Assembly: GCA_041657885.1 (NCBI GenBank)
Contig: JBBABB010000002.1
Span: 121,095 to 185,094 of the forward strand
Direction: 5' to 3'
Source: Minisyncoccota bacterium
Lineage (GTDB): Bacteria; Patescibacteriota; Minisyncoccia; Phycocordibacterales; UBA9973
DNA: 64,000 nucleotides
Made by a program: the position numbers and the translations under genes
Notes under the pieces: model-generated
The model's database searches: none
Told to the model about the DNA's origin: nothing
The model's input: only the letters and a program-made list of their open reading frames with translations
Shown here: one piece after another, positions 12,929 to 63,149 of the stretch
How the letters are laid out: each line of letters opens with the position of its first letter
Position numbering within the stretch: position 1 is the stretch's first letter

Positions 12929-12952
12929 TTTATAATTAATAATAAAAAATAT

Positions 12953-14671
12953 ATGGAAACAAAAAACTGCCAGAATTGTAAAAAAGAGTTCACTATCGAG
13001 CCAGATGATTTTTTATTTTACGAAAAAATAAAAGTTCCTCCGCCAACTTTTTGTCCGGAGTGTCGATATATCCACCGACTTTTGGATAGGAACGAATACA
13101 ATTTGTATAAAAGAAAATGTAATGCAACGAGTAAAGATATTATTTCCATCTATCGGCCGGAGATGCCATTCCCGGTCTATGAACAAGAATATTGGAAGTC
13201 CGACGCCTGGGATCCGACGAAGTATGGACGTGATTTTGATTTTACCAGGCCATTTTTCGAACAATTTGAAGAACTTCGCCGTGTTGTGCCACATTTGGCA
13301 ATGGTTAATTCGAGTAGCACCAACAGTGAATATACAAACCAGTCTCAAGATAATAAGGACTGCTATATGCTTGTCACGAGTAATCAATGTGAAAAGTGTA
13401 TGTATGGGAGCTGGTGTCAACAAAGCTGTTATTTTTTGAGTGACTGCTATATGGTACAAAAAAGCGAATTTTGTTATGAATGTATTAATCTCACAAAATG
13501 TTCACGATGTGCTTGGGCATATGATTGCTCTGATTGTGTAAATGTGTACTTTTCAAGTGATTGCCGAGGGTGTATTGATTGTTTCGGTTGTGTTGGGCTT
13601 CGAAGTAAACAGTATCATTTTTTAAACGAAAACATTGGGAAAGCTGAGTATGAAAAGAAAGTTAAGGAAAATGCCTGGAGTAGAAATTTTATAAAGGATT
13701 CAAAGGAAAAATTTTTCAAACTTCGCGCTAGTATTCCCGTAAAGTTTTATCATGGTTCACAGGTTCAAAACTCGACAGGAGACTATATAGAGAATTCACA
13801 AAATATGAATTATTCATTTAATTGTCGAGATAATAAAGACACAGCTTACATGCAGGATGCTTGGGAAAAAACGGAAGATTGTATGGATTGCACGGAAATA
13901 ATTGTTGGACAATTATCATACGAAATTCAAGGCGTCGAGAGACCGAGCAGATCAATGGTGGCAAGAAGTTGTTTTAATACGATAACCGATTCATGTTATT
14001 GTGATATGTGTTTTGGGGTTCGGGAATGCTTTGGTTGTTTCGGTCTTAAACATAACGAATATTGCATTTTAAATAAACAATACACTAAAGAAGAATATTT
14101 TAAATTAAAAGGTGAAGTTATCGAGCATATGAGGAAAACAAAAGAGTGGGGCAAATATTTTCCGTCCAATGTTTCGCCATTTGCCTATAATGAATCTATG
14201 GCCCAGGATTACTTTCCGCTTACGCGTGATGAAGCCATAAAAAAAGGATATACATGGTATGACCGACCACCACGCGATTACGGGATAACTCTTTCGGCAA
14301 AAGATTTACCTGAAACGTTTAATGATATAAAAGAAAATATTGAAGAGGAAACAATACAATGTTTCTCGCAAAATTCTAACCAAAAAGAAAAATACACTTT
14401 GTGTACAACAGCATTCAAAATAACATCACTTGAATTAACTTTGTATAAAATGCTTAATTTGCCTATTCCGGAGAAATGTTTCCCTTGTCGAAGACAAGAC
14501 AGATTTGCTCTCCGCAACCCGCGCCGACTTTGGCACCGAACATGTATGTGTGACAAGAAAGGGCACTTTCATGGTGAAAATAAATGCCAAGTGGAATTTG
14601 AGACTTCATATGCACCCGAGAGACCGGAGATTATTTATTGCGAAAGTTGTTACCAGAAGGAAGTGTATTAA
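12953..14671 (+). CDS. Cysteine-rich paralog 1 of 5 (zinc-ribbon-like N- and C-termini, internally duplicated CxxC-repeat core)
   Basis: N-terminus CQNCKKEFTIEPDDFLFYEKIKVPPPTFCPECR, C-terminus CFPCRRQDRFALRNPRRLWHRTCM...ETSYAPERPEIIYCESCYQKEVY; two internal blocks each ending C.GC.GL..K.Y..LN..YTKEEY; homologous along the full length to the ORFs at 33493, 41537, 43883, 48078. Confidence 0.75.
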   Translation: METKNCQNCKKEFTIEPDDFLFYEKIKVPPPTFCPECRYIHRLLDRNEYNLYKRKCNATSKDIISIYRPEMPFPVYEQEYWKSDAWDPTKYGRDFDFTRPFFEQFEELRRVVPHLAMVNSSSTNSEYTNQSQDNKDCYMLVTSNQCEKCMYGSWCQQSCYFLSDCYMVQKSEFCYECINLTKCSRCAWAYDCSDCVNVYFSSDCRGCIDCFGCVGLRSKQYHFLNENIGKAEYEKKVKENAWSRNFIKDSKEKFFKLRASIPVKFYHGSQVQNSTGDYIENSQNMNYSFNCRDNKDTAYMQDAWEKTEDCMDCTEIIVGQLSYEIQGVERPSRSMVARSCFNTITDSCYCDMCFGVRECFGCFGLKHNEYCILNKQYTKEEYFKLKGEVIEHMRKTKEWGKYFPSNVSPFAYNESMAQDYFPLTRDEAIKKGYTWYDRPPRDYGITLSAKDLPETFNDIKENIEEETIQCFSQNSNQKEKYTLCTTAFKITSLELTLYKMLNLPIPEKCFPCRRQDRFALRNPRRLWHRTCMCDKKGHFHGENKCQVEFETSYAPERPEIIYCESCYQKEVY

Positions 14672-14677
14672 AATATT

Positions 14678-14854
14678 ATGACTAATTTTCAAACAATTAA
14701 AAAACGAGCTTTTAAAAATAAAGCAGTCAAAAAAGCATATGATGATTTAAATCTTCCAATGTTTTCAGAAATTACTAATATAAATACTTATTCTAAAAGC
14801 TTTTCTTTTTTAAAAAAAGAGCCAGATATTTATTCAACTTCAAAAATAAAATAA
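14678..14854 (+). CDS. Possible small Lys-rich ORF (58 aa) just downstream of paralog 1
   Basis: ATG 7 nt after the upstream stop; MTNFQTIKKRAFKNKAVKKAYDDL...; below the track threshold, no motif. Confidence 0.15.
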   Translation: MTNFQTIKKRAFKNKAVKKAYDDLNLPMFSEITNINTYSKSFSFLKKEPDIYSTSKIK

Positions 14855-23195: not shown

Positions 23196-25526
23196 ATGAC
23201 AACCTCTGAATTAATTTCTTATATAAGAAAACAAATCAACAATAATATATCAAGGGATTTAATAATATCTAAACTTATTGAGGTGGGATGGCACAGGGAA
23301 GATATAAATGAAGGTTTTTTGAGTGTTGACCAATATCGTGAACCGCTAGAAGGAGATAATCTATTTGAGGCAAAAAAAGAACTACCCAAAATGGAAGTTT
23401 TTAATATAGAAATTCCCAAGGTAGAAACTCCTATAGCAGAAACACCAAAAATAGAAATCCCTAAAATAGATATTTTTAATATAGAAACCCCCGTAGTAGA
23501 AACCCCCGTAGTAGAAACACCCGTAGTAGAAACACCCGTAGTAGAAACCCCCGTAGTAGAAACCCCCGTAGTAGAAACCCCCGTAGTAGAAACCCCCGTA
23601 GTAGAAACCCCCGTAGTAGAAACCCCCGTAGTAGAAACCCCTAAAGTGTGGACTCCAATGAAGGTACCAATAATAGAAAAGTCGCAAGTAGAGGTTAGTG
23701 ATTTAGATTTGAAAACAGAAACAACCAAGATAGCAATTCAGAACCTAGAATTATCACCCCTACAGGGGATTTCTCATGCCTACGGCAGACCTCCCGAAGG
23801 GATCGGTCGTAGAGAGACAACCCAAAAAGAAGAAACCAAAAGCGAAGAACTCCTCCCGACTCTTATGCCTAAAGCGGTTGTTGATTCTTTTGGTTCTATT
23901 AATAGAGCCAACTTAATAAAAACAGAAGATGATACAATTGTCTCTAATGAAACTCCCAAAAGTTATTTAATTAATAATTTACCCAAAATAGCAATGCTCT
24001 CTTCTTATAAGAATGATTTATTATCTGCAACTAAAATAAAAGAAGAAATTGTTAAAAAGAAAGGTTTTAAAACAATTAAATGGGTTATTGTTGCACTTGT
24101 AGTTATTTTAATATCTCTAGCTGTGTGGGTATTTGCAAGTGGATATATAAATATTAAAAATCTGAATCTCCCTTTTATTAAGAAAGACCCAAGGGTCTTA
24201 TTGTTAAATAATTCAAAAGTTTTATCTTCTTTAAAATCATATAAAACAGAGACGAACATAGAAATTTTATCGCCTTCTTTTGCAAATATTGCCTCTGGGC
24301 TTATAAGTGGAGAAGCCATACCTTCACCGGATAAGGACTCTATTTCTATTAATGTTTTAGGATTAATTAATAAAAATGGACAAGGTGTATTCTCTGATAA
24401 TTTTGTGACAATTAAGGGTTCTTTATTGCCAGATTACATTACTACAGATATAAAAAATAATAGCTTAGATTTATTTATCTCTATTCCAGATCTTAGTCAG
24501 GTTATAAATGAGAATGCACCAGAACCAACCGTAGTTAAAATAAATGAGCAACAATTTGAGTTAGTTCCACCCTTATTCTCTCCAAATATTGAATTGCAAC
24601 TTAAAAAAATAAATATTTATAAAATCCTATCAAGCGGAATGCCATCTTATATTAACAATGACACACTAAGTGTTTATGATGAATTTATTAATAGTGTAGA
24701 TATAGTAGCAAAGGGACAAGAAAATATTAAGGGCATAGATACTTATCATTATTCAATAAATACTGATAGGCAATTAGCAAAAAATCTTTTAAATAAAATT
24801 TCTGATAATTTTATATTAAATCTTTCGGGTGATGATAAAGATAATTTGGCTCAAATTTTGGGCTCAATTACAATAGATTCATTGGAAATTTGGGTTGGGA
24901 AAGGAGATAATAATATTTATCAATATAATGTGGTTCTTGATGTGCCATTATCAAAAATTATAGGTTTTGAGGATAGAAGTATTGGAGATAATCAGTTAAG
25001 AATTACTTGGAAAACGACTTATTATGATTTTAATATATCAAATAATATATCCATACCAGATACATCTACTGCCATTACAGATTTTGTAAATGGTGTTAAG
25101 GAGACGAAAATAAAAAATGATGTTTCCTCTTTTAAACAACTTGCAACAAGTTTGTTCAATGCAGAAGGTGCTTATGGGAAAAAATCAAACTCAAGCGGTA
25201 GTTGTATGAACCCGAGTTCTGGTTCGTTATTTTCACCCACTGGTCATATTAAAGGTGTAACTACAACCACAGCAGTTAGCTCCATATCAGTATTATTAAA
25301 TAAAGTTTTAGGAATAACTGGTGGGGCTGGTTTCTGTTACTCCACACCAAAAGCTTGGTCATTTACAATTCCAATCTCTGATAATTATGCTCAAGCTTCT
25401 ATTCCAGTGGGAGGTTATACATCTTTCTTTTGTATTGACAGTACTGGTTCTACACAAGACCTTACAACTCCTCCAACTGGTGTCGTTTGTCTACCTAAGG
25501 TTAATCTTCCAAAGGAAGGTAATTAA
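23196..25526 (+). CDS. Large repeat-containing membrane/surface protein
   Basis: 776 aa; 10 tandem PVVET repeats, one TM helix around residue 300, large Ser/Thr/Asn-rich C-terminal domain. Confidence 0.45.
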   Translation: MTTSELISYIRKQINNNISRDLIISKLIEVGWHREDINEGFLSVDQYREPLEGDNLFEAKKELPKMEVFNIEIPKVETPIAETPKIEIPKIDIFNIETPVVETPVVETPVVETPVVETPVVETPVVETPVVETPVVETPVVETPVVETPKVWTPMKVPIIEKSQVEVSDLDLKTETTKIAIQNLELSPLQGISHAYGRPPEGIGRRETTQKEETKSEELLPTLMPKAVVDSFGSINRANLIKTEDDTIVSNETPKSYLINNLPKIAMLSSYKNDLLSATKIKEEIVKKKGFKTIKWVIVALVVILISLAVWVFASGYINIKNLNLPFIKKDPRVLLLNNSKVLSSLKSYKTETNIEILSPSFANIASGLISGEAIPSPDKDSISINVLGLINKNGQGVFSDNFVTIKGSLLPDYITTDIKNNSLDLFISIPDLSQVINENAPEPTVVKINEQQFELVPPLFSPNIELQLKKINIYKILSSGMPSYINNDTLSVYDEFINSVDIVAKGQENIKGIDTYHYSINTDRQLAKNLLNKISDNFILNLSGDDKDNLAQILGSITIDSLEIWVGKGDNNIYQYNVVLDVPLSKIIGFEDRSIGDNQLRITWKTTYYDFNISNNISIPDTSTAITDFVNGVKETKIKNDVSSFKQLATSLFNAEGAYGKKSNSSGSCMNPSSGSLFSPTGHIKGVTTTTAVSSISVLLNKVLGITGGAGFCYSTPKAWSFTIPISDNYAQASIPVGGYTSFFCIDSTGSTQDLTTPPTGVVCLPKVNLPKEGN
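23483..23642 (+). repeat. Tandem 15-bp repeat (about 10 copies) encoding (PVVET)n inside the CDS
   Basis: cccgtagtagaaacc / cccgtagtagaaaca units repeated head to tail, in frame. Confidence 0.85.
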
Positions 25527-33492: not shown

Positions 33493-35211
33493 ATGAAAAG
33501 TGAAGCAAAAAATTGTCAGAATTGTAAAAAAGACTTTGTTATCGAGCCGGATGATTTTTCATTTTATGAAAAAATAAAAGTTCCACCGCCAACTTTTTGC
33601 CCGGAGTGTCGGGGGATGAGAAGAATGGTGTGGAGGAATGAGAGAATTTTTTATCATAGGACATGCAATCTTTGTGGGATAAAGGTAATTTCGGTATTCG
33701 GGAATAAAGATATTAAGGTGTATTGTCAGAAATGTTGGTGGGGAGATGGCTGGGATGGATTAGAGTACGAGCAAGATTATGATTTCTCAAAGAGTTTTTT
33801 TGAGCAATATAAAAATCTATTTAGAAACGTTCCACAGATTAATTTAAATGGTCACGCAACAAACAAAAATTCAGATTACGTTAATTATATAGTTCAAGCG
33901 AATAATTCTTATTATTGTTTTGGGGGAGGATACTTGGATAATATTATGTTTTCTACTGTTGGAGTTAGAATGAAAGATTCAGCAGAAATATATTTTTCAA
34001 TGGATTGTGAGTTTTGTTATGAAATACTAAATTGCCAAAAATGTTATAGAATTTATTATGGGAATAATTTGAGAGATTGTCTCGATAGTTATTTTTTACA
34101 AGATTGCGTGAATTGCAATGAATGTATATTGTCGTGTAACTTGCGCAACAAACAATATGTGTTTAGAAATGAACAATTGACGAGAGAAGAGTATTTGATG
34201 AAAAAAGAGGAATTTTTAATTCTGTTTAGAAAAGATGTTTCATTGTTAAAAAATGAATTTAAAAAAATAGTATTAGAAAAACCAAAAAAGTTTGCAAATA
34301 TATTGAAATCAGAATTTTCAACAGGAGATAATATAACCGAAAGTTCAAAAGTTTATGATTCTTTTAATGTTTCAAAAACTGAAAATTGTAAATACTCTCA
34401 AGATATAGTCGGCGTGGCCCATGATGTTTACGACAGTACTAGTATCGGCCTGGGATTAGAACGAGTGTATGAATCAATGTCAGTAAGCATGAATATAACA
34501 GATGTGAATTTTTCAGTAATAGTAAGAAGTGCATCATATAAATTAAATTATTCTTTTTCTATGCATGCATCTTCTAATTGTTTCGGTTGTGTAGGATTAA
34601 AAAGTAAATCTTATTGCATCCTCAACCGCCAATACACCAAAGAAGAATACGAAGAATTAGTTCCAAAGATCATCCAGCATATGAACGATATGCCCTACAT
34701 AGATAGCAAAGGAAGAATATACAAATATGGAGAGTTTTTTCCAAGTGAACTATCACCATTCTGTTACAACGAGACAATCGCCCAAGAGTATTTTCCTTTG
34801 ACTAAAGAACAAGCTCTACAACAAGGTTACAAATGGAAGGAGAAAGAAGAAAGAAACTACCAAATAGACATTAAAAATGAAGATATCCCTGATAATATTA
34901 AAGATATAACTGATGATATCATCGGTAAAGTCATAGAATGCTCTCACAAAGGCACCTGTAACCAACAATGTACCGAAGCCTTCAAGATAATCCCCGAAGA
35001 ACTCCAATTCTACCGTCGTATGAACCTTCCATTACCAAGACTTTGTCCCAACTGTCGGCACTATGAACGTCTAGCTCAACGTAATCCTATGAAATTATGG
35101 CATAGGAAGTGTATGCATGAGGGTTGTACCAATGAATTTGAGACGAATTATGCCCCAGAGAGACCCGAAATCATTTATTGTGAGAAATGTTATCAAAAAG
35201 AGGTGTATTAA
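33493..35211 (+). CDS. Cysteine-rich paralog 2 of 5
   Basis: Same architecture as 12953; N-terminus CQNCKKDFVIEPDDFSFYEKIKVPPPTFCPECR, C-terminus ...NYAPERPEIIYCEKCYQKEVY. Confidence 0.75.
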   Translation: MKSEAKNCQNCKKDFVIEPDDFSFYEKIKVPPPTFCPECRGMRRMVWRNERIFYHRTCNLCGIKVISVFGNKDIKVYCQKCWWGDGWDGLEYEQDYDFSKSFFEQYKNLFRNVPQINLNGHATNKNSDYVNYIVQANNSYYCFGGGYLDNIMFSTVGVRMKDSAEIYFSMDCEFCYEILNCQKCYRIYYGNNLRDCLDSYFLQDCVNCNECILSCNLRNKQYVFRNEQLTREEYLMKKEEFLILFRKDVSLLKNEFKKIVLEKPKKFANILKSEFSTGDNITESSKVYDSFNVSKTENCKYSQDIVGVAHDVYDSTSIGLGLERVYESMSVSMNITDVNFSVIVRSASYKLNYSFSMHASSNCFGCVGLKSKSYCILNRQYTKEEYEELVPKIIQHMNDMPYIDSKGRIYKYGEFFPSELSPFCYNETIAQEYFPLTKEQALQQGYKWKEKEERNYQIDIKNEDIPDNIKDITDDIIGKVIECSHKGTCNQQCTEAFKIIPEELQFYRRMNLPLPRLCPNCRHYERLAQRNPMKLWHRKCMHEGCTNEFETNYAPERPEIIYCEKCYQKEVY

Positions 35212-35410
35212 AATTCTCCTCTTGAGGTGAAGTTGGGTTGGGACCCAACTGTAAAACCTTTTGAGATATCTTTGTAATCAAAGTATCCAAAAGGTGTACT
35301 GCTCCTGTAAGGAGTACCCGCTAATGCGGGGGAGGTGGATGAATTTAATTCTGGATTAATTCATCCACCCCGTCTTTTGAGTACAAAATTCACCCCTCAA
35401 GAGGGGAATA
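35212..35410 (+). ncRNA. Conserved ~190-nt structured element, copy A (candidate ncRNA or 3'UTR element), directly after the paralog 2 stop
   Basis: About 93% identical to 45605-45792. Predicted closing helix cctcttgagg/cctcaagagg, hairpins agttggg..cccaact, ccttttg..caaaagg, cccgc taat gcggg, ggtggat..atccacc; the differences from copy B include compensatory pairs. Confidence 0.5.
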
Positions 35411-35499
35411 AATTTTGATCCAAAAATATGCTACCGCAGAACGATTATTTAGGGGACTTTTCAAAAAATATTGACTAATATCAAGCATCTTTTTATAAT

Positions 35500-35599: not shown

Positions 35600-37975
35600 A
35601 TGCCTTCAAAAAAGAAAGTATCCAGCGTGAAAAAAAATGTGAAAAGGGTCGTCACAAAAAATTCTCCAGTTGCAGAAACAAAAAAATCAATTAAGAATAT
35701 TTTTATTAAAAGCGTTCAAAAAAGGGATGGTACAATCGTTCCTTTTGATATAGAAAAAGTAACGAATGCTATTAATAAAGCTATGCTTTCAAGTGGTGAA
35801 GGTTCTTCAAAAGAAGCGGAGCTTGTTGCCAATGGTGTTTTGATGGAATTAGTTAAAATTGCTAAAAAACACAAGAATTTTATTCCATCTGTTGAAGGAA
35901 TTCAGGATACAGTTGAACAAGAATTAATGTTGTCTGATTATGTGAAAACTTCTAAGCATTACATTCTTTATCGTGAAGAAAGAGCAAGACTAAGAGCTCA
36001 TAGCATAACTGTTCCAGTCCATTTGAAAAAGTTAGCAGATGAAAGCAAAAAATATTTTAGAACTTCCCTTGGTGAATTTGTTTATTACCGAAGTTATTCG
36101 AAGTGGATTAAAGAAGAGGGTAGACGTGAGACATGGATTGAGACAGTTAACCGTTATATGGATTTCATGAAAAAAAATCTTGGCAACAAATTAAAAGCAC
36201 ATGAGTATGATGAGGTTAGAGATTACATTTTGAAAAACAAAGCAATGCCTTCTATGAGATTGTTGCAATTTGCCGGTCGTGCTGCAGAAGCGACAAATGT
36301 TTGTGCATATAATTGCTCATTTATTGCACCTGAGAGTTTCCAAGACATTGCAGAGATAATGTACATATCAATGTGTGGCACTGGTGCTGGTTGGTCAGTG
36401 GAAAGTGAAAATGTTCAAAAGCTTCCACAAATAAAAGTTCAAACAGGCCAGAAACTCGCGACTCATATTATAGATGATAGTAAAGAGGGTTGGGCAGATG
36501 CATTTTCTCTTGGTATAAGCACTTGGGCAGATGGGAAAGATATTGATTTTGATTTTTCAAAACTTCGTCCAGCTGGAGCTCGTCTTATGACCATGGGGGG
36601 CAAAAGTTCAGGACCTGACCCATTACGTAAACTTCTCGGATTTACCCGCAAGAAAATATTTACGAAGCAAGGACGTCGTCTCTCAAATCTAGATGTTCAC
36701 GATATTATTTGTATGGTGGGGGATTGTGTTGTTTCTGGTGGAGTTAGAAGGAGTGCCATGATTTCACTTTCCGATTTAGATGATAATGATATAAGAGATT
36801 CTAAAAAAGGTCAATTTTACCTTACAGATCCTCATAGATCTCTGGCTAACAACTCAGCTGTCTATATGCGAAAACCTCCAGCAACGCAGTTTTTAGATGA
36901 ATGGATTTCATTAATGAAGTCAGGTTCTGGGGAAAGAGGAATATTTAATCGTGGATCACTTGCTAAAACTTTACCAAAACGCCGAATTGATTATTTAAAA
37001 GAAGAAGGATATTTTGATGCATCTGGAGAAAATATTATAGGAATTCTTGGAACAAATCCGTGTGGAGAAATAATTTTGCGCTCAAAACAATTTTGTAATT
37101 TATCAGAAGTTATTTGTAGAGAGGATGACACAAAAGAAAGTTTATTAGAAAAAGTCAGAATAGCAACAATTTTGGGGACTTATCAATCAACTTTAACCAA
37201 TTTCCCATATCTTTCAAAAGCATGGGCAAATAATTGTGCTGCCGAAAGATTGCTTGGGGTATCTCTCACTGGTCAATGGGATAATAAAATTGTTCGTAAT
37301 GCGGAAGTTTTGAAAATATTGAAGAATGAAGCGATAAGAGTAAATAAAGTTTATGCTAAGCGTTTTGAAATTAATACTTCTAATGCTATCACTTGTGTAA
37401 AGCCATCAGGAACAGTTTCTAAAACATTTGATACTGGTTCTGGAATGCACCCAAGACACGCTCCTTACTATATACAACGCATTCGTATTTCTTCAACCGA
37501 TTCATTATTTAAAATGTTGAAAGACCAAGGAGTACCTTATCATCCAGAAGTTGGTCAATCAATGGAAGATGCAAATACTTATGTTCTTGAATTTCCAATG
37601 AAGTCACCCGTCGGGTCAATTTTCAAAGACGACATTTCTTCTATTGAACAATTGGAACATTGGAAATTGGTAAAAGAAAATTATACCGAACATAATCCAT
37701 CTGTGACTATTTCTGTCGGAGATGATGAATGGCTTAAAGTTGCTCATTGGGTTTATGAGAATTGGGATATTGTTGGAGGGTTGTCATTCTTGCCAAGATC
37801 AAATCATGTTTACCAACTTGCACCTTATGAAGAAATAACTAGAGAACAATATGAAACTTTGATGAAGAAATTTCCAACGATTGATTATTCAAAAATTATT
37901 ACTTATGAAAAAGTAGATGAAACTGAAGTAAAAAGAGAACTCGCTTGTATTTCTGGAGTTTGTGATATAGTGTAA
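35600..37975 (+). CDS. Ribonucleotide reductase catalytic subunit with N-terminal ATP-cone; NPCGE active-site motif suggests class II (adenosylcobalamin-dependent, NrdJ-like)
   Basis: ATP-cone VQKRDGTIVPFDIEKVTNAI; active-site GTNPCGEIIL; C-terminal redox pair CISGVC; no small-subunit gene nearby. Confidence 0.7.
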   Translation: MPSKKKVSSVKKNVKRVVTKNSPVAETKKSIKNIFIKSVQKRDGTIVPFDIEKVTNAINKAMLSSGEGSSKEAELVANGVLMELVKIAKKHKNFIPSVEGIQDTVEQELMLSDYVKTSKHYILYREERARLRAHSITVPVHLKKLADESKKYFRTSLGEFVYYRSYSKWIKEEGRRETWIETVNRYMDFMKKNLGNKLKAHEYDEVRDYILKNKAMPSMRLLQFAGRAAEATNVCAYNCSFIAPESFQDIAEIMYISMCGTGAGWSVESENVQKLPQIKVQTGQKLATHIIDDSKEGWADAFSLGISTWADGKDIDFDFSKLRPAGARLMTMGGKSSGPDPLRKLLGFTRKKIFTKQGRRLSNLDVHDIICMVGDCVVSGGVRRSAMISLSDLDDNDIRDSKKGQFYLTDPHRSLANNSAVYMRKPPATQFLDEWISLMKSGSGERGIFNRGSLAKTLPKRRIDYLKEEGYFDASGENIIGILGTNPCGEIILRSKQFCNLSEVICREDDTKESLLEKVRIATILGTYQSTLTNFPYLSKAWANNCAAERLLGVSLTGQWDNKIVRNAEVLKILKNEAIRVNKVYAKRFEINTSNAITCVKPSGTVSKTFDTGSGMHPRHAPYYIQRIRISSTDSLFKMLKDQGVPYHPEVGQSMEDANTYVLEFPMKSPVGSIFKDDISSIEQLEHWKLVKENYTEHNPSVTISVGDDEWLKVAHWVYENWDIVGGLSFLPRSNHVYQLAPYEEITREQYETLMKKFPTIDYSKIITYEKVDETEVKRELACISGVCDIV

Positions 37976-38007
37976 AATAATTAAAAATTAAGAATTAAAA
38001 ATTAATA

Positions 38008-38532
38008 ATGAGAAACGGAATCAAATATGTTATTGCTTTTTTAGTTGTGTTAGTTATCAGACTGATGCCTTTTCGAGCACCAAATGTGGAGCCAATCATG
38101 GCAGTGATTATGCCATTCGGAAAAGTTTACGGAGGAATTATGGCTTTTATATTTGGGTTCCTTAGTATTGTTTTGTTTGACTCTGTAACGTCTGGCATAG
38201 GTATCTGGACCCTTGTCACCGCTCTTGCTTACGGTTTTGTGGGGTTAGGAGCTTATTTTTACTTCAAAAATCGCTCAGGATGGAAAAGTTATGCTTCTTA
38301 TGCAATTATAGCCACAATTCTATATGACGTATTGACTGGTCTTACTATTGGTCCATTGTTTTTCCACCAGTCATTCATGGTATCATTAGTAGGTCAGGTT
38401 CCGTTTACTGCTATGCACTTGCTTGGAAATGTTTCTTTTGCTATAGTTCTATCACCAGTAATTGAAAGATGGATAGTAAAAGAAAATATTTCAGAATCAA
38501 AAATAATGACAAGAGAGATAGTCAAGGTTTAG
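38008..38532 (+). CDS. Small polytopic membrane protein, possibly an ECF-transporter S-component-like vitamin transporter
   Basis: 174 aa, 5-6 TM helices, size and topology like ECF S components; no diagnostic motif. Confidence 0.3.
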   Translation: MRNGIKYVIAFLVVLVIRLMPFRAPNVEPIMAVIMPFGKVYGGIMAFIFGFLSIVLFDSVTSGIGIWTLVTALAYGFVGLGAYFYFKNRSGWKSYASYAIIATILYDVLTGLTIGPLFFHQSFMVSLVGQVPFTAMHLLGNVSFAIVLSPVIERWIVKENISESKIMTREIVKV

Positions 38533-43252: not shown

Positions 43253-43415
43253 ATTAGTAATTACTAATTATAATTGTTCTTTAATAGGTTTAAATTATAA
43301 GTACTACCTAGTCGAGGTAGTATCAATTTATTAGTAAATTTTAGCTACCTACGCCACCTCCTCAGTACAAGACTACGGCGAGTCAAGGTGTGCTACGGCG
43401 AGCCGAAGAAATTAT

Positions 43416-43841
43416 ATGCTTTACGAAACAGTACAAAAAGAGGATAAAGAGATTGTTTTTGTTTATACAACATGTGGAAGTATAGAAGAAGCAAGGTCAA
43501 TAGGTCTTTCTGCCATAAAAGAAAGATTGGCCATTTCTGCGGATTATTGGCTTATCAATTCAATATATCCATGGAAAGGTGTTATCCAAGAGATAGGTCA
43601 GTGTATGCTTATGTTTGCAACGCAGAAAACCTTAAGTGACAAGTTAATCAAACATATAGAAGCAGAGCATTCATACAGTGTTCCAATTATTATAAGGAGT
43701 GAGACATCTTTGACAAATCAGGAGTATGCTTTTTGGGTAGATAATACACTAACAGGCAAAGAGGAATATATCACCGAAGCCGAAGAACAACTTAAAAAGA
43801 AAAATGAGGAAGTAGGGTATCATTATGATAGACTTAAGTAA
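43416..43841 (+). CDS. cutA: Divalent-cation tolerance protein CutA-like
   Basis: VFVYTTCGSIEEARSIGLSAIKERLAISADYW...PWKGVIQE...HSYSVPIII pattern of the CutA1 family. Confidence 0.65.
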   Translation: MLYETVQKEDKEIVFVYTTCGSIEEARSIGLSAIKERLAISADYWLINSIYPWKGVIQEIGQCMLMFATQKTLSDKLIKHIEAEHSYSVPIIIRSETSLTNQEYAFWVDNTLTGKEEYITEAEEQLKKKNEEVGYHYDRLK

Positions 43842-43882
43842 TAGTAAGAGAGAATTAAGAATTAAGAATTAAGAATTGAGAA
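43842..43882. repeat. AT-rich heptamer tandem repeat (gaattaa/gaattga, about 5 units) upstream of paralog 4
   Basis: agagaattaagaattaagaattaagaattgagaattgg; related aattaagaatta strings at 37990 and 63130. Confidence 0.6.
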
Positions 43883-45604
43883 TTGGAATACCAATCAACA
43901 ATAAAACAGTGTCAAAATTGCAAGAATGACTTCACCATTGAGTCCGATGATTTTTCATTTTATGAAAAAATAAAGGTTCCTGCCCCAACTTTTTGTCCGG
44001 AGTGCCGTATGATAAGAAGAATGACTTGGAGGAATGAAAGGTCTTTTTTTAAAAGGGATTGTGATTTTACTGGTAAACCGATAATCACAATGTTCCATCC
44101 TGAAGCTAATGTAAAAATATATGATCATGATGTTTGGTGGAGTGATAAATGGGAACCAACTGATTACGGCATGGATTATGATTTTTCTCGACCGTTCTTT
44201 AAGCAATATCAAGAACTTTTGTCTAAAGTTCCGCTTCAAAACTTAGGAAATAATCGTTGCATTAATTCCCCATATTGTAACCATTGTGCTGACTGTAAAA
44301 ATTGTTATTTAGTTTATGCTTCTTATCTGGCTGAAGATATTTTATATTCTCAAGGGGCTGGTTCTTTAAAAAGTTGTATTGACACTTATTCAATTATGAA
44401 ATCGGAGCAATGTTATGAAGACGTTCTTTGTGATTCTCTATATCAGGTCAATTTTTCTTTTGGCTCTGATCAATCAATTAATTCTTCTTTTTTGAAAGAA
44501 TGTATAAATTGTCAAGAATGTATCTGTTGTATAAATCTTCGTAATAAAAAATATTGTATTTTTAATAAGCAATATACCAAAGAAGAATATTTAAAAATTA
44601 AAGAAAGTTTAGATTTTGGAAGTTATAAAGTATTGTCTGAATTTAAAAAACAATATAAAGAATTCATTCTTAAATTTCCTTGCAAATATGCTGGAATATT
44701 AAAATCTCCTGATTCATCTGGGGATTGTATTTTAAATTCAAAAAATGTAAAACAGTCTTTTGATATTTACGGCGATATTGAAGATTCAAAATATGTAGCT
44801 CATGGTTTAGGGGCTAAAGACAGTTATGATGTTTATGGTTTTGGAGCTGGAGCTTTTCTTTTGTATGAGGGAGTAGATATTGGTATTAGGGGATCCAATA
44901 ATTATTTTTGCGTTCTTAATCATGGAAGCATTAATACTCAATATACTTATATGTGCTATAATGCCAAAAATCTTTTTGGTTGTATTGGTATAAGAAAAGG
45001 AGAATATTGTATTTTAAATAAAAAATATTCTAAAGAAAAATATGAAGAATTGGTTCCTAAAATAATAGAACATATGAACAATATGCCTTACATAGATAAT
45101 AAGGGTAGAATCTATAAATATGGAGAATTTTTTCCATCAGAATTAAGTCCATTTGCTTACAACGAAACCATAGCACAAGAATATTTTCCTAAAACAAAAA
45201 ACGAAATAGAAAACGATGGATATTTGTACAGAAAATCTCCCAAAAGGGAATATAAAACGACTATAAATTCTAAAGATTTACTAGATAATATAAATGAAGT
45301 AAATGATAATATCATAGATGAAATTATCGCTTGCCCAAATAATGGCAATGAATTAACCTTATGTACACAAGCATATCGCATAGTTAAAGATGAATTAACT
45401 TTTTTAAGAAGATATAATATCGCCTTACCGCGTTACTGTCCTAATTGCAGACACTATGAACGCCTATCTCAAAGAAATCCTATGAAATTATGGCACCGAA
45501 AATGCATGAAGGAAGGATGTAATAATGAATTTGAGACAAGTTATGCCCCAGAAAGGCCCGAGATTATTTATTGTGAGAAGTGCTATCAGAAGGAAGTGTA
45601 TTAA
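43883..45604 (+). CDS. Cysteine-rich paralog 4 of 5
   Basis: N-terminus CQNCKNDFTIESDDFSFYEKIKVPAPTFCPECR, C-terminus ...SYAPERPEIIYCEKCYQKEVY; a block near residues 388-440 is almost identical in protein to paralog 2. Confidence 0.75.
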   Translation: MEYQSTIKQCQNCKNDFTIESDDFSFYEKIKVPAPTFCPECRMIRRMTWRNERSFFKRDCDFTGKPIITMFHPEANVKIYDHDVWWSDKWEPTDYGMDYDFSRPFFKQYQELLSKVPLQNLGNNRCINSPYCNHCADCKNCYLVYASYLAEDILYSQGAGSLKSCIDTYSIMKSEQCYEDVLCDSLYQVNFSFGSDQSINSSFLKECINCQECICCINLRNKKYCIFNKQYTKEEYLKIKESLDFGSYKVLSEFKKQYKEFILKFPCKYAGILKSPDSSGDCILNSKNVKQSFDIYGDIEDSKYVAHGLGAKDSYDVYGFGAGAFLLYEGVDIGIRGSNNYFCVLNHGSINTQYTYMCYNAKNLFGCIGIRKGEYCILNKKYSKEKYEELVPKIIEHMNNMPYIDNKGRIYKYGEFFPSELSPFAYNETIAQEYFPKTKNEIENDGYLYRKSPKREYKTTINSKDLLDNINEVNDNIIDEIIACPNNGNELTLCTQAYRIVKDELTFLRRYNIALPRYCPNCRHYERLSQRNPMKLWHRKCMKEGCNNEFETSYAPERPEIIYCEKCYQKEVY

Positions 45605-45792
45605 AATTCTCCTCTTGAGGTGAAGTTGGGTTGGGACCCAACTGTAAAACCTTTTGAGATATCTTTGTAATCAAAGTATCCAAAAGGTGTACTGCTCCTG
45701 TAAGGAGTACCTGTTAATGCAGGGGAGGTGGATATATTTAACTTATCCACCCCGTCCTTTGGGTACAAAGTCCACCCCTCAAGAGGGGAATA
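45605..45792 (+). ncRNA. Conserved ~190-nt structured element, copy B, directly after the paralog 4 stop
   Basis: First 108 nt identical to copy A; remaining differences keep base-pairing (cccgc/gcggg to cctgt/gcagg; shortened ggtggat..atccacc hairpin). Confidence 0.5.
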
Positions 45793-45840
45793 AAACACAG
45801 ATTCTTATTCTTTTTTGTTTTTATTTGGTATAATATAACT

Positions 45841-48077: not shown

Positions 48078-49808
48078 ATGTCAAGCACAAAATCACAAAT
48101 CAAAATCTGTCAGAACTGTAAAAAAGACTTCATTATTGAGCCAGATGATTTTCTATTCTATGAAAAAATAAAAGTCCCTCCACCCACTTTTTGCCCGGAG
48201 TGTAGGATGATTAGAAGAATGACTTTTAGAAATGAAAGGACTCTTTATAGAAGAACTTGTGAAGCAAAGGAACATGGGGAACAAATACTTTCTGTATTTT
48301 CACCTGATAAAAAACAAAAAGTATTTTGTCATAGTGCTTGGTGGGGTGATAGCTGGGATGGAATTGAATATGCAAAAGATTATGATTTTTCAAAAACTTT
48401 TTTCTCTCAAATACAGGAATTATGGCAATCTGTCCCAGACATAGGACTTTTCAATATTAATCCAGTAAATAGTGAATATTGTAGTATAACAGAAGGTAAT
48501 AAAAATTGTTATTTAGTAATTGGTGGTGATTTTAATGAGGATACAAGGTATTCCTGTTTTATATTTCATAGCAAGGAATGTGCTGATTGCTATGGTATAT
48601 CAAAAAGCGAGTGGAATTATGAAGTTATAGATTCAATTCAAAATTATAACTTATCATACAGTCAATATTGTGAAGGTTGTTATGATAGTGTTTTTTTATT
48701 TAATTGTAAAAATTGTAGTAATTGTTTTGGTTGTACTAATTTAAATAATGGTTCTTATTCTTGGTTTAATGAACAATTAACAAAAGACGAATACAAAACA
48801 AGATTAGAAGAAATAAATTTAGGAAGTTATATCTCTATACTAAAACATAAAAAAGATTTTTATGAATTTTCGTTAAAATTTCCTAGAAAGTATTCTAGAA
48901 TACTAAGGTCTGTAAATTCTACAGGAGACAATATGGAACAAGCTAAAAATTGTAAAGAATGTTTTGGGATTTTTGATGGAGCGGAAGATTGTAGATATTT
49001 ATGGTTAATATACTCGAAAATAACGAATTCTTTTGATTCAGATCATTCAGGATTAAAATCAAATTTACTTTATGAATGTTCAACTGTCTATCCTGGCAAT
49101 ATTGTATTATTTTCACGTTTTATATTTAATGGACGCGAAGTAGAATATTCATATAATTGCCACAACTCGTCAAATATTTTTGGATGTATAGGTTTAAGAA
49201 ATAAACAATATTGTATTTTAAATAAGCAGTATTCTAAAGAAGAATATAAGGAATTAAGACTAAAAATTATAGAGCATATGAATAAAACCCCATATGTTAA
49301 TAGTGCAGGGAATATATATAAATATGGTGAATTTTTTCCAGAAGAAATTTCTCCTTTTGCTTATAATGAAACTGTAGCAAATGAATTGCTTCCATTAGGA
49401 GAAGAAAAAGTAAAAAAGAGTGGATATCTCTGGAAACAAAAGGAAGGGAAGAACTATGCAATTACAAAAAACTTTAACGATTTACCAGATAATATTAATC
49501 AAGTGGATATTTCTATAACAAAGGAAACGATACAATGTACTCACAATGGTAATTGTAATGATGGATGTTCTACAGCATTTAAAATAACAGAAGATGAATT
49601 AAATTTCTATAAAAAAATGAATATTCCATTACCAAGACTATGTTCAAATTGTAGACACTATGAAAGATTGCAAAGCAGGAATCCTATAAAGCTCTGGCAT
49701 CGAACTTGCATGAAAGAAGGGTGTAATAATGAATTTGAGACAAGCTACGCCCCAGAGAGACCGGAAATTGTGTATTGTGAGAAGTGTTATCAACAAGAGG
49801 TATATTAA
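48078..49808 (+). CDS. Cysteine-rich paralog 5 of 5
   Basis: N-terminus CQNCKKDFIIEPDDFLFYEKIKVPPPTFCPECR, C-terminus ...SYAPERPEIVYCEKCYQQEVY. Confidence 0.75.
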   Translation: MSSTKSQIKICQNCKKDFIIEPDDFLFYEKIKVPPPTFCPECRMIRRMTFRNERTLYRRTCEAKEHGEQILSVFSPDKKQKVFCHSAWWGDSWDGIEYAKDYDFSKTFFSQIQELWQSVPDIGLFNINPVNSEYCSITEGNKNCYLVIGGDFNEDTRYSCFIFHSKECADCYGISKSEWNYEVIDSIQNYNLSYSQYCEGCYDSVFLFNCKNCSNCFGCTNLNNGSYSWFNEQLTKDEYKTRLEEINLGSYISILKHKKDFYEFSLKFPRKYSRILRSVNSTGDNMEQAKNCKECFGIFDGAEDCRYLWLIYSKITNSFDSDHSGLKSNLLYECSTVYPGNIVLFSRFIFNGREVEYSYNCHNSSNIFGCIGLRNKQYCILNKQYSKEEYKELRLKIIEHMNKTPYVNSAGNIYKYGEFFPEEISPFAYNETVANELLPLGEEKVKKSGYLWKQKEGKNYAITKNFNDLPDNINQVDISITKETIQCTHNGNCNDGCSTAFKITEDELNFYKKMNIPLPRLCSNCRHYERLQSRNPIKLWHRTCMKEGCNNEFETSYAPERPEIVYCEKCYQQEVY

Positions 49809-49814
49809 AATAGG

Positions 49815-51026
49815 ATGAAGTTTAAATATAAAATACAAAATAAGAATTATGGGATATTTGAAGGGATTACTGAATCACCAGACAAATTTACTTTAGCGAG
49901 AGAGTTTCGAGAGAAAGGCAATACTCCTATTTTTATAGAAGAATTTAAAAAAAATACTAATATTTTTTCAATGAAAATAGATTTTTTAAGTAGAGTTTCT
50001 CTGGCAGAAAAAATTATGTTTACTAATAATTTAAGTGGGATGCTTACAGCAGGACTTTCTCTAAACAGAGCTTTATCTATATTAGAAAAACAATCAACAA
50101 ATTCTACTCTTGGTGATGTTTTACGTAGTTTAGAAGAAGATATAAGCAAAGGAAATACTCTTTCAGAAGGGATGAGAAAATTTCCCAAAATTTTCTCTGG
50201 AATTTTTATACCAATGGTTCACGCCGGAGAAGAATCAGGGAATCTACCGACGACGCTTACAGAAGTTGGATTGAGTCTTAAAAAATCTTATGATTTAAAC
50301 AAAAAAATAAAAGGGGCTATGACATATCCGACTATTATTATTTGCGCGATGGTCATAATTGCTATATTTATGATGATTTATGTTGTCCCGACTCTGACTA
50401 AAACATTTACAGACATGGGTTCTGAATTACCAGCATCTACCAAAATGATTATTTGGATTTCTGATTCTATTAGTCAGCATATATTTTTATTTTTATCCTT
50501 AATTGGTGCTTTTATTTTAAGTATTATTTTTCTTTTTAAAATTAAATTAGTTCGCAGATATTTTGATCGTTTTATTTTATATATTCCTGTTATTGGTAAA
50601 ATAGTTAAAGAAGTTAATACTGCTCGCACCGCAAGGACAATGTCCTCTTTATTATTATCTGGGGTAAGTATTTCCAATTCTTTATCCATAACAGAAGAAG
50701 TTCTTCAAAATATTCATTATAAGGAATTGATTCATAAATCAATTGCCTCTATAGAAAAAGGTACAGTTCTATCTGCTTCTTTTAAAGAAAATACTTTTCT
50801 CTATCCAGTAATGATGGGAGAAATGATTGAAGTTGGAGAAGAAACTGGTAATTTATCAAAAATGCTTTTAGATATTGCTAATTTTTATGAAACAGAAGTA
50901 GATAATAAAACAAAAGATTTATCAACAATTATTGAACCAGTTTTAATGCTTTTTATCGGAGCGGCTGTTGGAATTTTTGCTATTTCTATGATTAAACCAA
51001 TGTATTCGGTTATGAGTGATATTTAG
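49815..51026 (+). CDS. pilC: Type IV pilus assembly platform protein PilC (GspF family)
   Basis: Two T2SS-F-type domains with three TM helices; position after pilB. Confidence 0.8.
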   Translation: MKFKYKIQNKNYGIFEGITESPDKFTLAREFREKGNTPIFIEEFKKNTNIFSMKIDFLSRVSLAEKIMFTNNLSGMLTAGLSLNRALSILEKQSTNSTLGDVLRSLEEDISKGNTLSEGMRKFPKIFSGIFIPMVHAGEESGNLPTTLTEVGLSLKKSYDLNKKIKGAMTYPTIIICAMVIIAIFMMIYVVPTLTKTFTDMGSELPASTKMIIWISDSISQHIFLFLSLIGAFILSIIFLFKIKLVRRYFDRFILYIPVIGKIVKEVNTARTARTMSSLLLSGVSISNSLSITEEVLQNIHYKELIHKSIASIEKGTVLSASFKENTFLYPVMMGEMIEVGEETGNLSKMLLDIANFYETEVDNKTKDLSTIIEPVLMLFIGAAVGIFAISMIKPMYSVMSDI

Positions 51027-51523: not shown

Positions 51524-52060
51524 ATGAAAAATATTTTCAAAAAAAAGAAAAATTTGGTGTCGGGGTTTACCCCCACACCAAATTTCACAAAGAAAAGGAA
51601 TTTGGTGTGGGGGTTTACTATTATAGAAGTATTAGTAGCTTGTGTCATAATAACGACAACGACTATCGCTTTAATGTCAGCTACTTCAAAAGGGATAGAG
51701 CTTTCTAATAGAGCATTAAGACAAGTGCAAGCGAATATGCTTATGGAAGAAGGAGTTGAGGCGGTTAAATCAATAAGAGATACTAGTTGGGCGACAATTT
51801 CAGGAAAAAGTTTAAATACGAATTATTATTTATCTTTTTCAGGTGCTTGGATTCTTGGGACAACTCCAGTAGCACAAATAGATGAAATTTTTACTAGAAA
51901 AGTTATTTTCTCGGCGGTTAATCGTGATAGTAATGATGATATCGCTTCTTTCGGAATTGTTGATATAGGAATTAAAAGAGTAAATGTTATAGTTGAGTGG
52001 TCAACTCCTAGTGGAATAAATTCAAAAAGTATAACATTTTATTTAGCCAATATTTTTTAA
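51524..52060 (+). CDS. Prepilin-type protein with unusually long leader (second G-F-T site)
   Basis: Leader MKNIFKKKKNLVSGFTPTPNFTKKRNLVWGFTIIEVLV; class III signal peptide. Confidence 0.55.
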   Translation: MKNIFKKKKNLVSGFTPTPNFTKKRNLVWGFTIIEVLVACVIITTTTIALMSATSKGIELSNRALRQVQANMLMEEGVEAVKSIRDTSWATISGKSLNTNYYLSFSGAWILGTTPVAQIDEIFTRKVIFSAVNRDSNDDIASFGIVDIGIKRVNVIVEWSTPSGINSKSITFYLANIF

Positions 52061-52064
52061 TTAA

Positions 52065-52610
52065 ATGAAAACACAAAACAAAAAAGGTTTTACCCCCACA
52101 CCAAATTTCATAAAGAAAAGGAATTTGGTGTGGGGGTTTAGTATAATTGAGATTATGGTTTATTTAGCTATTTTTACCGCCCTTTCAATTTTGGTGATTA
52201 ATTCATTTATTGTTGTTTTATCTTCATTTAACACGACGAATATGAATCGTAAATTACTTGAGTCAGGTGTAGTATCTATGGAGCGTATTTCTCGAGAAAT
52301 TCGTCAGGCACAAAGTGTTGATGCTAGTAGCACTCAAACTATATTAGTTCTAAATAGTCATGATAATTTAGGGACTGTTATGGTTATTAAATTTATAAAA
52401 GAAGGCAGAGCTTTAAATCTTTACAAAAATGATATTTTGCAAGGTAATTTACTTGGAGAGAATTTATCTGTTACAAATATAATTTTTAATCGTATTACTA
52501 CAACCCAAAGTGAAGCGATAAAAATAGAAATGACTTTGCAATACTCTGGAGGAAATAAGACTAAATCGGAAAATTTTTACAATACGGTTATTTTAAGGGG
52601 TAGTTATTAA
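52065..52610 (+). CDS. Prepilin-type protein with the same long leader
   Basis: MKTQNKKGFTPTPNFIKKRNLVWGFSIIEIMV. Confidence 0.55.
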   Translation: MKTQNKKGFTPTPNFIKKRNLVWGFSIIEIMVYLAIFTALSILVINSFIVVLSSFNTTNMNRKLLESGVVSMERISREIRQAQSVDASSTQTILVLNSHDNLGTVMVIKFIKEGRALNLYKNDILQGNLLGENLSVTNIIFNRITTTQSEAIKIEMTLQYSGGNKTKSENFYNTVILRGSY

Positions 52611-52641
52611 TGGATTAGGTTCTAAAAAATAGAAATTAAAA

Positions 52642-61322: not shown

Positions 61323-61826
61323 TTGTTGGTCAAAGAAATAAAAATATACACAGATGGTTCATCACTCGGTAACCCAGGTAAGGGTGGTTGGGGAGTAGTG
61401 ATAATTAAGAATGAAGAATTAGGAATTAGAAATGAAAATTCTAATAATATTGTAGAGCTTGGGGGATATGATAAAAATACTACGAACAATCGTATGGAGC
61501 TTCAAGCTGTAATAGAAGCATTAAAATATCTCTCAGCTAGGCAAGGCCTAGCTGAAAATAAAAAGAAAGATAAAGTGAAAATTTTTGCGGATTCAAATTA
61601 TGTTCTTTTGGGTGTCACTTCATGGATTTTTAATTGGGAGAAAAATGGTTGGAGAACGGCCAATAAAAAACCCGTATTGAATCAAAATTTATGGAAAGAA
61701 TTGATTGAGTTAATAAGAAATTATGGTAATAAAATAAATTGGCAAAAAGTAAAAGGGCACTCGGGGCATGTTCACAATAATCGCGCAGATGAAATAGCTA
61801 CAAGTAAAGCATTGCTTCAAAAATAA
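61323..61826 (+). CDS. rnhA: Ribonuclease HI (TTG start)
   Basis: IYTDGSSLGNPGKGGWG, MELQAVIEAL, ADSNYV, GHSGHVHNNRADEIA catalytic signature. Confidence 0.8.
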   Translation: MLVKEIKIYTDGSSLGNPGKGGWGVVIIKNEELGIRNENSNNIVELGGYDKNTTNNRMELQAVIEALKYLSARQGLAENKKKDKVKIFADSNYVLLGVTSWIFNWEKNGWRTANKKPVLNQNLWKELIELIRNYGNKINWQKVKGHSGHVHNNRADEIATSKALLQK

Positions 61827-63133: not shown

Positions 63134-63149
63134 TAATTAAGAATTAAAA

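Follow-up and report, generated by a model that had tools for sequence, protein, structure and literature searches.

What is the structured element of nearly 200 nucleotides (nt) that follows, in two almost identical copies, the stop codons of two paralogous cysteine-rich (Cys-rich) genes of a Minisyncoccota bacterium (assembly GCA_041657885.1, contig JBBABB010000002.1, positions 121,095 to 185,094 of the forward strand; this 64,000-nt stretch with 33% G+C is referred to as the window)? The first-pass annotation, made from the sequence alone, took it for a structured RNA, viz., a small RNA or a cis-acting element of the 3' untranslated region (3'UTR). The observations behind that reading stand, in that the element is discrete, has an exceptional fold, shows compensatory changes, and is placed between one gene's stop codon and the gene that follows; the part of it that makes the element a dedicated small RNA or cis element of these genes is not supported. 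We propose instead, with a probability of roughly 0.8, that what we have here are sister copies of a palindromic mobile repeat, non-autonomous and widespread in Patescibacteria (the candidate phyla radiation, CPR). The two copies, whose organization as a Type A doublet is explained below, are:

35213..35409, + strand: copy A of the palindromic repeat, a Type A doublet with a nested insert (covariance model R1, 257 bits)
45606..45791, + strand: copy B, the sister of copy A (covariance model R1, 238 bits)

The ends of the element were set from the flank profile of the family, in which position -1 is A and position +1 is T in ~92% of 51 elements, and the conserved core of copy A reads A-TTCTCC...GGGGAA-T. 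Copies A and B are 197 and 186 nt long, respectively, and align with a mean column identity of 94%, the first ~110 columns after the stop codon being identical; copy B has the same insert as copy A, but its H5 hairpin is shorter and its H4 and H6 are variants. The core, (A)TTCTCC..., starts 1-2 nt past the TAA stop codons (35209-35211 for copy A and 45602-45604 for copy B), and both the near-identity and the position just past the stop codon had been recognized correctly. No third copy was found in the window in pattern searches allowing 3 mismatches (2 hits versus ~0.01 expected). Relative to shuffled sequences, copy A folds as RNA with -98.5 kcal/mol (z = -11.5) and copy B with -91.1 kcal/mol (z = -9.5); the minus strand of the element folds too (z = -9.6), as does copy A when treated as DNA (-57.1 kcal/mol, z = -11.7). 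The previously described closing helix with several hairpins is thus recovered as a helix of 15-16 bp (ttctcctcttgagg / cctcaagaggggaa) around six hairpins, with z-scores of about -10 to -12. RNAalifold, one of the checks suggested earlier, was run on the two copies and bears out pair-preserving differences, with three pairs altered on both sides (in cccgc/gcggg C-G becomes U-A, the basal pair of the ggtggat hairpin goes from G-C to A-U, and the last hairpin has C-G in place of U-A) and one more pair difference, C-G to U-G. The parts of the element are:

35213..35227, + strand: left terminal inverted repeat (ATTCTCCTCTTGAGG), which forms the closing helix on its 5' side
35228..35312, + strand: insert X of copy A, 85 nt, hairpins H1-H3, nested in the left arm
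35317..35330, + strand: variable hairpin H4, CCCGC-TAAT-GCGGG in copy A and CCTGT-TAAT-GCAGG in copy B
35331..35371, + strand: hairpin H5, with a conserved stem (GGAGGTGGA / TCCACCCC) and a variable AT-rich loop
35364..35409, + strand: right-hand module M-> (TCCACCCCG, variable hairpin H6, CACCCCTCAAGAGGGGAAT), which defines the family
35393-35409, + strand: right terminal inverted repeat, within the right-hand module M->
45621..45705, + strand: insert X of copy B, with 100% identity to its counterpart in copy A

The genes that precede the copies belong to a set of five Cys-rich paralogs in the window, rather than the four counted before:

~12950-14671: Cys-rich paralog 1, no element after its stop codon
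33493..35211, + strand: Cys-rich paralog 2, 572 amino acids, complete; copy A follows its stop codon
41537-43252: Cys-rich paralog 3, no element after its stop codon
43883..45604, + strand: Cys-rich paralog 4, 573 amino acids; copy B follows its stop codon
48078-49808: Cys-rich paralog 5, no element after its stop codon

Their products have no match in Pfam or NCBIfam but have thousands of homologs, whose named sources are Candidatus Nomurabacteria, Paceibacterota, and other Patescibacteria, and their N- and C-terminal regions have a zinc-ribbon-like repeat in common (C-x2-C ... FY ... P.P..CP.CR). In related genomes these genes usually form tandem arrays of 2-5, and the long match spans seen in some homologous loci, considered as gene insertions, were rejected as being such arrays of paralogs. 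The intergenic region that follows paralog 3 (43290-43400) has a different hairpin (TACTACCTAGTCGAGGTAGTA) and a GC-rich stretch with repeated CTACGGCGAG motifs.

The proteins encoded by paralogs 2 and 4 are 50% identical. Their two most conserved 30-codon blocks have an amino acid identity of 0.90 and a nucleotide identity of 0.79-0.82, which agrees with the contrast drawn in the first-pass annotation, and a codon alignment of the last 36 codons gives a third-position identity of ~0.5 at identical residues all the way to the stop codon; the ~100 nt of coding sequence just upstream of the copies are ~80% identical. The ~110 identical nucleotides of the element are indeed more conserved than synonymous sites. 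Homology between the two loci ends right after GGGGAATAAA, with none downstream. Synonymous saturation reaches as far as the stop codon; the high identity of the copies therefore reflects recent copying and not selection. Purifying selection on a gene-specific RNA, which the earlier reading implied, is at odds with the distribution of the element: it is absent after the stop codons of the four closest orthologs, at 84% (L200), 78% (L201), 75% (L202), and 77% (L001) amino acid identity, where TAA is followed by unrelated sequence, and of three of the five paralogs, and its arms occur, nearly unchanged, in dozens of unrelated contexts, in frame within housekeeping genes among them. Among 79 genome loci with a Cys-rich homolog only one, L071, has the element, 2.9 kb from the matched homolog.

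The junctions of the two copies can be compared with unoccupied counterparts in the same window:

35209..35213, + strand: TAAAA left junction of copy A, including the stop codon TAA; candidate target-site duplication with TAAAT at 35409-35413
45602..45606, + strand: TAAAA left junction of copy B; identical TAAAA at 45791-45795
14663..14680, + strand: empty site, where paralog 1 ends in GTGTATTAAAAT, followed by ATTATG and the next gene; no element
49800..49817, + strand: empty site, where paralog 5 ends in GTATATTAAAAT, followed by AGGATG and the next gene; no element
35471..35499, + strand: promoter-like site TTGACT-17-TATAAT upstream of a ribonucleotide reductase gene, a match to the consensus only

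Copy B is thus bounded as TAAAA[TTCTCC...GGGGAA]TAAAA and copy A as TAAAA[...]TAAAT, and paralogs 1 and 5 end in GT(G/A)TATTAAAAT, just as the filled sites do, with the next gene immediately after. Judged from these sequences, the filled junctions and the empty sites would fit a target duplication of 4-5 bp at the stop codon, and across the family the left flank prefers T(T/A)AA-A. With this promoter-like site behind it, copy A comes to stand at the 3' end of the transcription unit upstream; because each copy is found past a stop codon and ahead of the next gene and a promoter-like match follows copy A, the copies are probably transcribed as 3'UTR. In a simple scan the 3' hairpin of copy A, CCCCTCAAGAGGGG with AATAAATTTT, gives a weak terminator-like hit, and no terminator-like tail is found in copy B; some members of the family end in GGGGAATTTTTTT.

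That this is a repeat family is apparent from its members elsewhere. A covariance model built from copies A and B found a short form of ~90 nt in a Paceibacterota genome (L071 7668-7763), whose ends are identical to those of the window copies and which has ~86 fewer internal nucleotides. With the 3' module pattern, CCACCCC-N(10-30)-CCCCTCAAGAGGGG, matches came from at least 119 stretches of metagenomes (groundwater, digesters, lakes, and termite gut), many of the copies being from Hainich groundwater, and from one viral contig. Among the matches listed, to which all family counts given here refer, there are 156 modules, 63 full-length doublets, and 38 parsed Type A copies including the two in the window. 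The module M-> spans ~40 nt and comprises TCCACCCCG, a variable perfect hairpin, and CACCCCTCAAGAGGGGAAT (sorted from the hits, its start reads (T)CCACCCCG before the variable hairpin). It occurs singly and in doublets, in which an AT-rich loop connects a reverse and a forward module; Type B doublets are symmetric (reverse module, loop, forward module), and Type A doublets are asymmetric, with the order AATTCTCCTCTTGAGGAGTA-[hairpin]-GGAGGTGGA-[AT-rich loop]-M->, a common form of ~76-103 nt, near-invariant arms, and variable hairpins. The AT-rich loop of H5 is accordingly the junction of the two half-elements. Full-length doublets measure 76-132 nt, the two window copies alone being longer, and one contig (L157) carries 5 modules within 3.4 kb.

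The arms are invariant in all 33 distinct short Type A copies, which come from many samples, while the hairpin interiors and the loop vary. In the family the left terminal inverted repeat is the right-hand module in a reversed, diverged copy, and 14 of the 15 positions of ATTCTCCTCTTGAGG agree with the reverse complement, ATTCCCCTCTTGAGG. The possibility that the outer helix behaves as the terminal inverted repeats of a mobile element, raised earlier as something to check, turns out to be the better reading of it. Variation in the inner hairpins is extensive, with 25 distinct sequences of H4 across the family, nearly all perfect stems, and 93 distinct inner hairpins among the 156 module instances. 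These have a mean minimum free energy of -4.8 versus -1.3 kcal/mol for shuffles, and their pairs are 98% Watson-Crick (8 G-U in 433 pairs); H4 and H6 of Type A show no consistent strand asymmetry. Given that G-U pairs are few and both strands fold, a DNA palindrome fits better than an RNA under selection.

Insert X accounts for the greater length of the two window copies, being present in these alone among the 63 full-length members. It has a relative at L123 142-241(-), past a toxin-like gene, in which the three hairpins recur and three pairs are compensatory. As this relative sits outside any Type A element in an unrelated contig, insert X is, on comparison of the two sequences, apparently a further small structured element that lies within the first; that both window copies share it makes them sister copies made within this lineage. 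The L123 relative has no match in Rfam, and a search of viral contigs for insert X returned only an unrelated phage hairpin or nothing. Insert X also holds a stop codon in the reading frame of the family, as seen by direct reading of the window copies. The contig L123 (Ga0209515_10088320; 2132 nt) consists of approximately two tandem copies of a ~1.06-kb unit, each with a small antitoxin-like gene, a toxin-like gene (read as MazF/PemK-like), and a proline-rich C-terminal gene end with one module. Its first unit holds the full relative of X and its second keeps only the 3' ~40 nt, a layout that could represent a small circular element or a tandem duplication.

Comparison with described RNA families, another check suggested in the first-pass annotation, gave no family that reaches threshold at the element: with Rfam 15 and gathering thresholds only tRNAs are reported in the whole window. 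The manA RNA (RF01745) scored 16.4 bits against a threshold of 55.2 (E = 0.04) in a search of 331 nt (35150-35480) and was set aside as a chance match; it resembles the element in being multi-hairpin and of similar length, but its pseudoknot-forming conserved strands are missing here. ARAGORN places five tRNAs elsewhere in the window and no tRNA or transfer-messenger RNA at either copy. Repeats of a diversity-generating retroelement, an integron attC site, a retron RNA, and a TnpB omega/guide RNA were likewise dropped, there being no reverse transcriptase, integrase, or TnpB nearby; in addition, the Cys-rich genes have no Pfam hit, and the differences between copies A and B are not adenine-specific. 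A Shine-Dalgarno-like GGAGGTGGAT was considered as the start of a small open reading frame (ORF) and rejected, with no start codon conserved across copies. Neither in Rfam nor in the searchable literature (on the motif, on DUF559 mobile elements, and on palindromic elements of the CPR) was anything specific to this family found.

The members inside genes are particularly informative. Thirteen Type A copies lie within an ORF on the element's own strand, several of these ORFs being short and perhaps not genes, and they are always read in one frame (N/D-SPLEEY..GGGG..STPS..TPQEGN). The hosts include UvrB (two contigs, same site), PheT, PurD, a UvrD-like helicase, and RsmA/KsgA. On comparison of UvrB with PDB 9gy7_E the element adds 35 residues between the adjacent residues 428 and 429. 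In the longer ORFs, 9 of 10 copies belong to the length class that preserves the frame (p = 3.6e-4), and copies after stop codons spread over all three length classes; because their length class keeps the frame, the in-gene copies are translated and not spliced out. One homologous protein has the element at the same site in antisense orientation, with the frame still open. A peptide-profile search for proteins with the in-frame insert gave only 5 short hits from 51 candidates, within the limit set by the word index, and was uninformative.

In three paralogous or orthologous genes (L155 3692-3730 and 6572-6610; L156 4024-4062) a module alone is in frame within a putative C-terminal secretion-sorting domain (..FGKKI-PPRLTSSATPQEGN-LRIDVS..). 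Further short, GC-rich, hairpin-encoding inserts of other types are seen in L175, L084 (UvrB), L147 (RsmA, helicase), L160, L110, and L105, e.g., ..APTGALRGKPVARSLGG.., ..PSFAKASEGR.., ..PLLPGEGRGEV.., and ..SPQPSPDRGG.., and GC-rich hairpins related to such inserts lie beside modules in L071, L080, L131, L141, L142, and L145. The window itself has a 65-nt perfect hairpin (GGGTTTACCCCCACACCAAATTTC...GAAATTTGGTGTGGGGGTTTAC) at 51563-51627 and 52086-52150 (92% identical), each time reading in frame close to the N-terminal end of a prepilin-like gene (..GFTPTPNFTKKRNLVWGFTIIEV..); this looks like another palindromic in-frame insert, of a different family. It seems that these genomes harbor several families of palindromic, in-frame inserts.

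The sole gene that is recurrently bracketed by modules codes for a DUF559 protein (Pfam PF04480, E = 4e-22), i.e., a Vsr-like nuclease of the PD-(D/E)XK type. At eight loci that were matched by the module pattern only, a DUF559 gene lies next to modules, with 67-100% amino acid identity to the copy in L157, and the DNA of L203 and L204 bears out the bracketing, and in L203 the partner downstream is a Type A element, complete and reversed. The domain by itself, used as query, gave 1512 homologs; the best 120 of these are 75-100% identical and, where named, come from Candidatus Nomurabacteria, Paceibacterota, or Parcubacteria. Among these best 120, 93 begin with a peptide encoded by M-> (..STPS-x-HPSRGE-WNP..) and 91 end in ..FPS, which corresponds to the reverse module in frame up to a TGA inside CTCTTGAGG. 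The DUF559 ORF hence typically begins just ahead of M-> and terminates within the reverse module. In two near-identical contigs (L154 and L136) the whole unit, which has no stop codon there, is in frame within hsdS, in the order Methylase_S, DUF559, and the remainder of the type I restriction specificity gene. In two other contigs the DUF559 unit directly follows rpoD (L157 1527-1662; L204 1998-2070), and at L203 2001-2556 it is in a type IV pilus cluster between pilM-like and pilB-like ATPase genes; a pilB-like ATPase gene is also the immediate downstream neighbor of copy B. Beside modules, no transposase was seen.

The recurrent bracketing makes the DUF559 protein a candidate mobilizing enzyme on sequence grounds. 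More broadly, the modules and the DUF559 gene might constitute one undescribed selfish system, with a REPIN-like repeat mobilized or homed by a Vsr-like PD-(D/E)XK nuclease rather than an HUH transposase, spread through Patescibacteria and placed habitually in frame in essential genes and exactly at stop codons; this is a tentative proposal, to which we give somewhat less than even odds. Vsr enzymes nick at T-G mismatches, and for this reason one may speculate that the nuclease recognizes the Type A stem, once folded, by its conserved T-G and A-C mismatches.

For the window copies, we envisage that a Type A element took up the 85-nt insert X in its left arm, and that the composite was then copied within this genome, landing at TAAAA, including the stop codon, of two of the five Cys-rich paralogs with the common junction GTGTATTAAAAT. 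The 94-100% identity would then measure how recent the copying was, and the hairpins and their compensatory differences would be properties of the repeat family. The stems would probably be needed in folded single-stranded or cruciform DNA for mobilization, which the bracketed DUF559 gene product may carry out, and the variable hairpin cassettes would probably be exchanged among family members. If the target preference is T(T/A)AA-A, TAA stop codons would be natural landing sites, and the sense bias of in-gene copies (below) could be an outcome of replication-strand or transcription-linked insertion. Once in a 3'UTR, so stable a structure could incidentally block 3' exonucleases or aid termination, and an exapted, incidental role of this kind, as terminator or stabilizer, is possible.

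Several observations weigh against the mobile-repeat reading. The 64-kb window contains neither a transposase nor a DUF559 gene, and therefore mobilization here is inferred and the connection of DUF559 to copies A and B is indirect. Family-wide permutation tests for target duplication are marginal, the flanks being AT-rich, and no clear target duplication is seen at the L197 and UvrB copies. The second copy in the window may have arisen by element-limited gene conversion between the paralogs and not by two insertions. H4 has slightly more G-U pairs on the sense strand (8 versus 1). Placement is also biased: 16 of the 38 Type A copies lie 1-57 nt past the stop codon of a co-oriented ORF and 2-5 after a gene on the opposite strand, and inside genes the sense orientation prevails by 12:1. 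Such biases could reflect an RNA-level or translation-linked role, and not only a target preference or a replication-strand bias. Finally, 2 of the other 36 Type A copies (L129 and L197) directly follow a homolog of the Cys-rich family, a placement that suggests a target preference for the conserved Cys-rich 3' end.

It is from these placements that the strongest rival, a functional cis-acting 3'UTR RNA of the Cys-rich genes under selection (a terminator, an exonuclease block, or a binding site for the zinc-ribbon proteins), draws some of its support: Type A elements stand behind Cys-rich homologs in L129 and L197 as well, almost half of the Type A copies come shortly after a co-oriented stop codon, and in the window itself the very stable fold with its pair-preserving differences is directly behind the stop codon, with copy A ahead of a promoter-like match and ending in a terminator-like hairpin. 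Yet the terminator-like tail is wanting in copy B, the stems are nearly free of G-U pairs, and an RNA serving these genes is hard to reconcile with its lack in the closest orthologs and most of the paralogs, with its single occurrence, not adjacent to the gene, among the 79 gene-bearing loci, and with the translation of the same element in frame within unrelated genes. We therefore consider it improbable, if the most serious of the alternatives. That the two copies are remnants of a segmental duplication or of conversion between paralogs, rather than a mobile element, is a good deal less probable again. The equal position relative to paralogous genes and the otherwise unique insert X in both copies would follow from it directly, and the ~80% identity of the adjoining ~100 nt could seed conversion; but a duplication that includes the coding sequence, which the first-pass annotation had named as one finding that would undo its reading, was looked for and is contradicted by the drop in identity at the stop codon, with saturated synonymous sites up to that point and no homology past GGGGAATAAA. 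An ancient duplication of genes whose proteins are 50% identical cannot give 94-100% identity, and the same element with the same ends occurs in many unrelated places; conversion confined exactly to the element, possible as it is, would leave the identity of the element unchanged.

The in-gene copies invite a further explanation, namely an intervening sequence at the RNA level, self-excised or removed by an enzyme, by which these copies would leave the mRNA. A compact, highly conserved element whose long closing helix joins both ends, with a strong sense bias in genes and sites at surface-loop positions of essential enzymes, has something of this appearance. Against it, the in-gene copies keep the frame without stops and the untranslated ones do not, the one antisense copy is open as well, no ribozyme or intron family matches, and the window copies follow complete genes; this is the least credible of the readings considered. 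We accordingly retain the mobile palindromic repeat as the explanation of copies A and B.

Two other features of the window belong to none of these subjects. An apparent coding region (23392-23691) has ~20 tandem copies of a 15-nt unit (GTAGTAGAAACCCCC, a five-residue peptide repeat), and an AT-rich repeat motif of the AATTAAGAATTAA type is present just upstream of start codons at 37967-38024, 43841-43898, 52614-52659, 61404-61449, and 63109-63166, which may be a shared promoter or leader feature.

The element mimics a textbook structured RNA in its folding z-score, compensatory changes, and 3'UTR site, and will mislead screens for noncoding RNAs in CPR genomes; recognizing the repeat family prevents such false calls. 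On the proposed reading, the streamlined genomes of these ultrasmall bacteria tolerate a repeat that adds 25-35 residues to UvrB, PheT, and PurD. This would be a second, independent case of the phenomenon known from the Rickettsia palindromic elements (RPEs), again in a lineage with reduced genomes. The DUF559 bracketing offers a concrete, testable candidate for how such repeats move, an open question for RPEs and for many MITEs (miniature transposable elements with inverted repeats). To our knowledge, no mobilizing enzyme is known for RPEs.

The closest described systems are RPEs, REPINs with their RAYT transposases, and bacterial MITEs; the element falls outside each of these as they are defined but works like them. 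RPEs are short palindromic repeats found in intergenic DNA and in frame in many housekeeping genes (PMC10969869). The present family likewise comprises palindromes of the order of ~100-150 bp that occur in frame in genes and in intergenic DNA, adding a conserved peptide and leaving the host protein intact. However, its hosts are Patescibacteria and not Rickettsia, the likeness, drawn from the description of RPEs, is a functional one only, and the family differs in its modular build with swappable perfect hairpin cassettes and in having a physically linked candidate partner gene, that for DUF559.

With REPINs it shares a short palindromic unit that is dispersed both singly and as inverted doublets forming long hairpins, and the flanking of a single-copy-type gene by inverted units recalls the REP-RAYT-REP arrangement reportedly described by Bertels & Rainey in 2011 and Nunvar in 2010. 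In contrast to that arrangement, the flanked gene here encodes a DUF559 Vsr-like PD-(D/E)XK nuclease rather than an HUH Y1 transposase, the elements are not restricted to extragenic DNA, and the arms are near-identical across many environmental samples instead of being confined to one species. IS200/IS605-type elements have subterminal hairpins, a Y1 transposase (TnpA) as partner, and insertion 3' of a fixed short target with no duplication; the left flank preference and the orientation bias of the present family might recall them, but no TnpA was seen and the terminal inverted repeats are true ones. Vsr-like and other PD-(D/E)XK homing endonucleases include I-Bth0305I and I-Ssp6803I. The DUF559 gene resembles them as a small stand-alone nuclease gene, conserved at 75-100% across samples and once in frame in a host gene, though here no intron or intein surrounds it and its link to the modules is purely positional.

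Bacterial MITEs (Correia/NEMIS, BOX, RUP, SPRITE, and ERIC) insert near gene ends, nest, and occasionally form in-frame fusions (PMC10969869). Like them, the present element is small (<~500 bp), has terminal inverted repeats and no coding capacity, and would give a stable transcript structure. It departs from them in that no parent insertion sequence with matching ends and a transposase was found for the family, and in that its interior consists of independent hairpins rather than of one long foldback.

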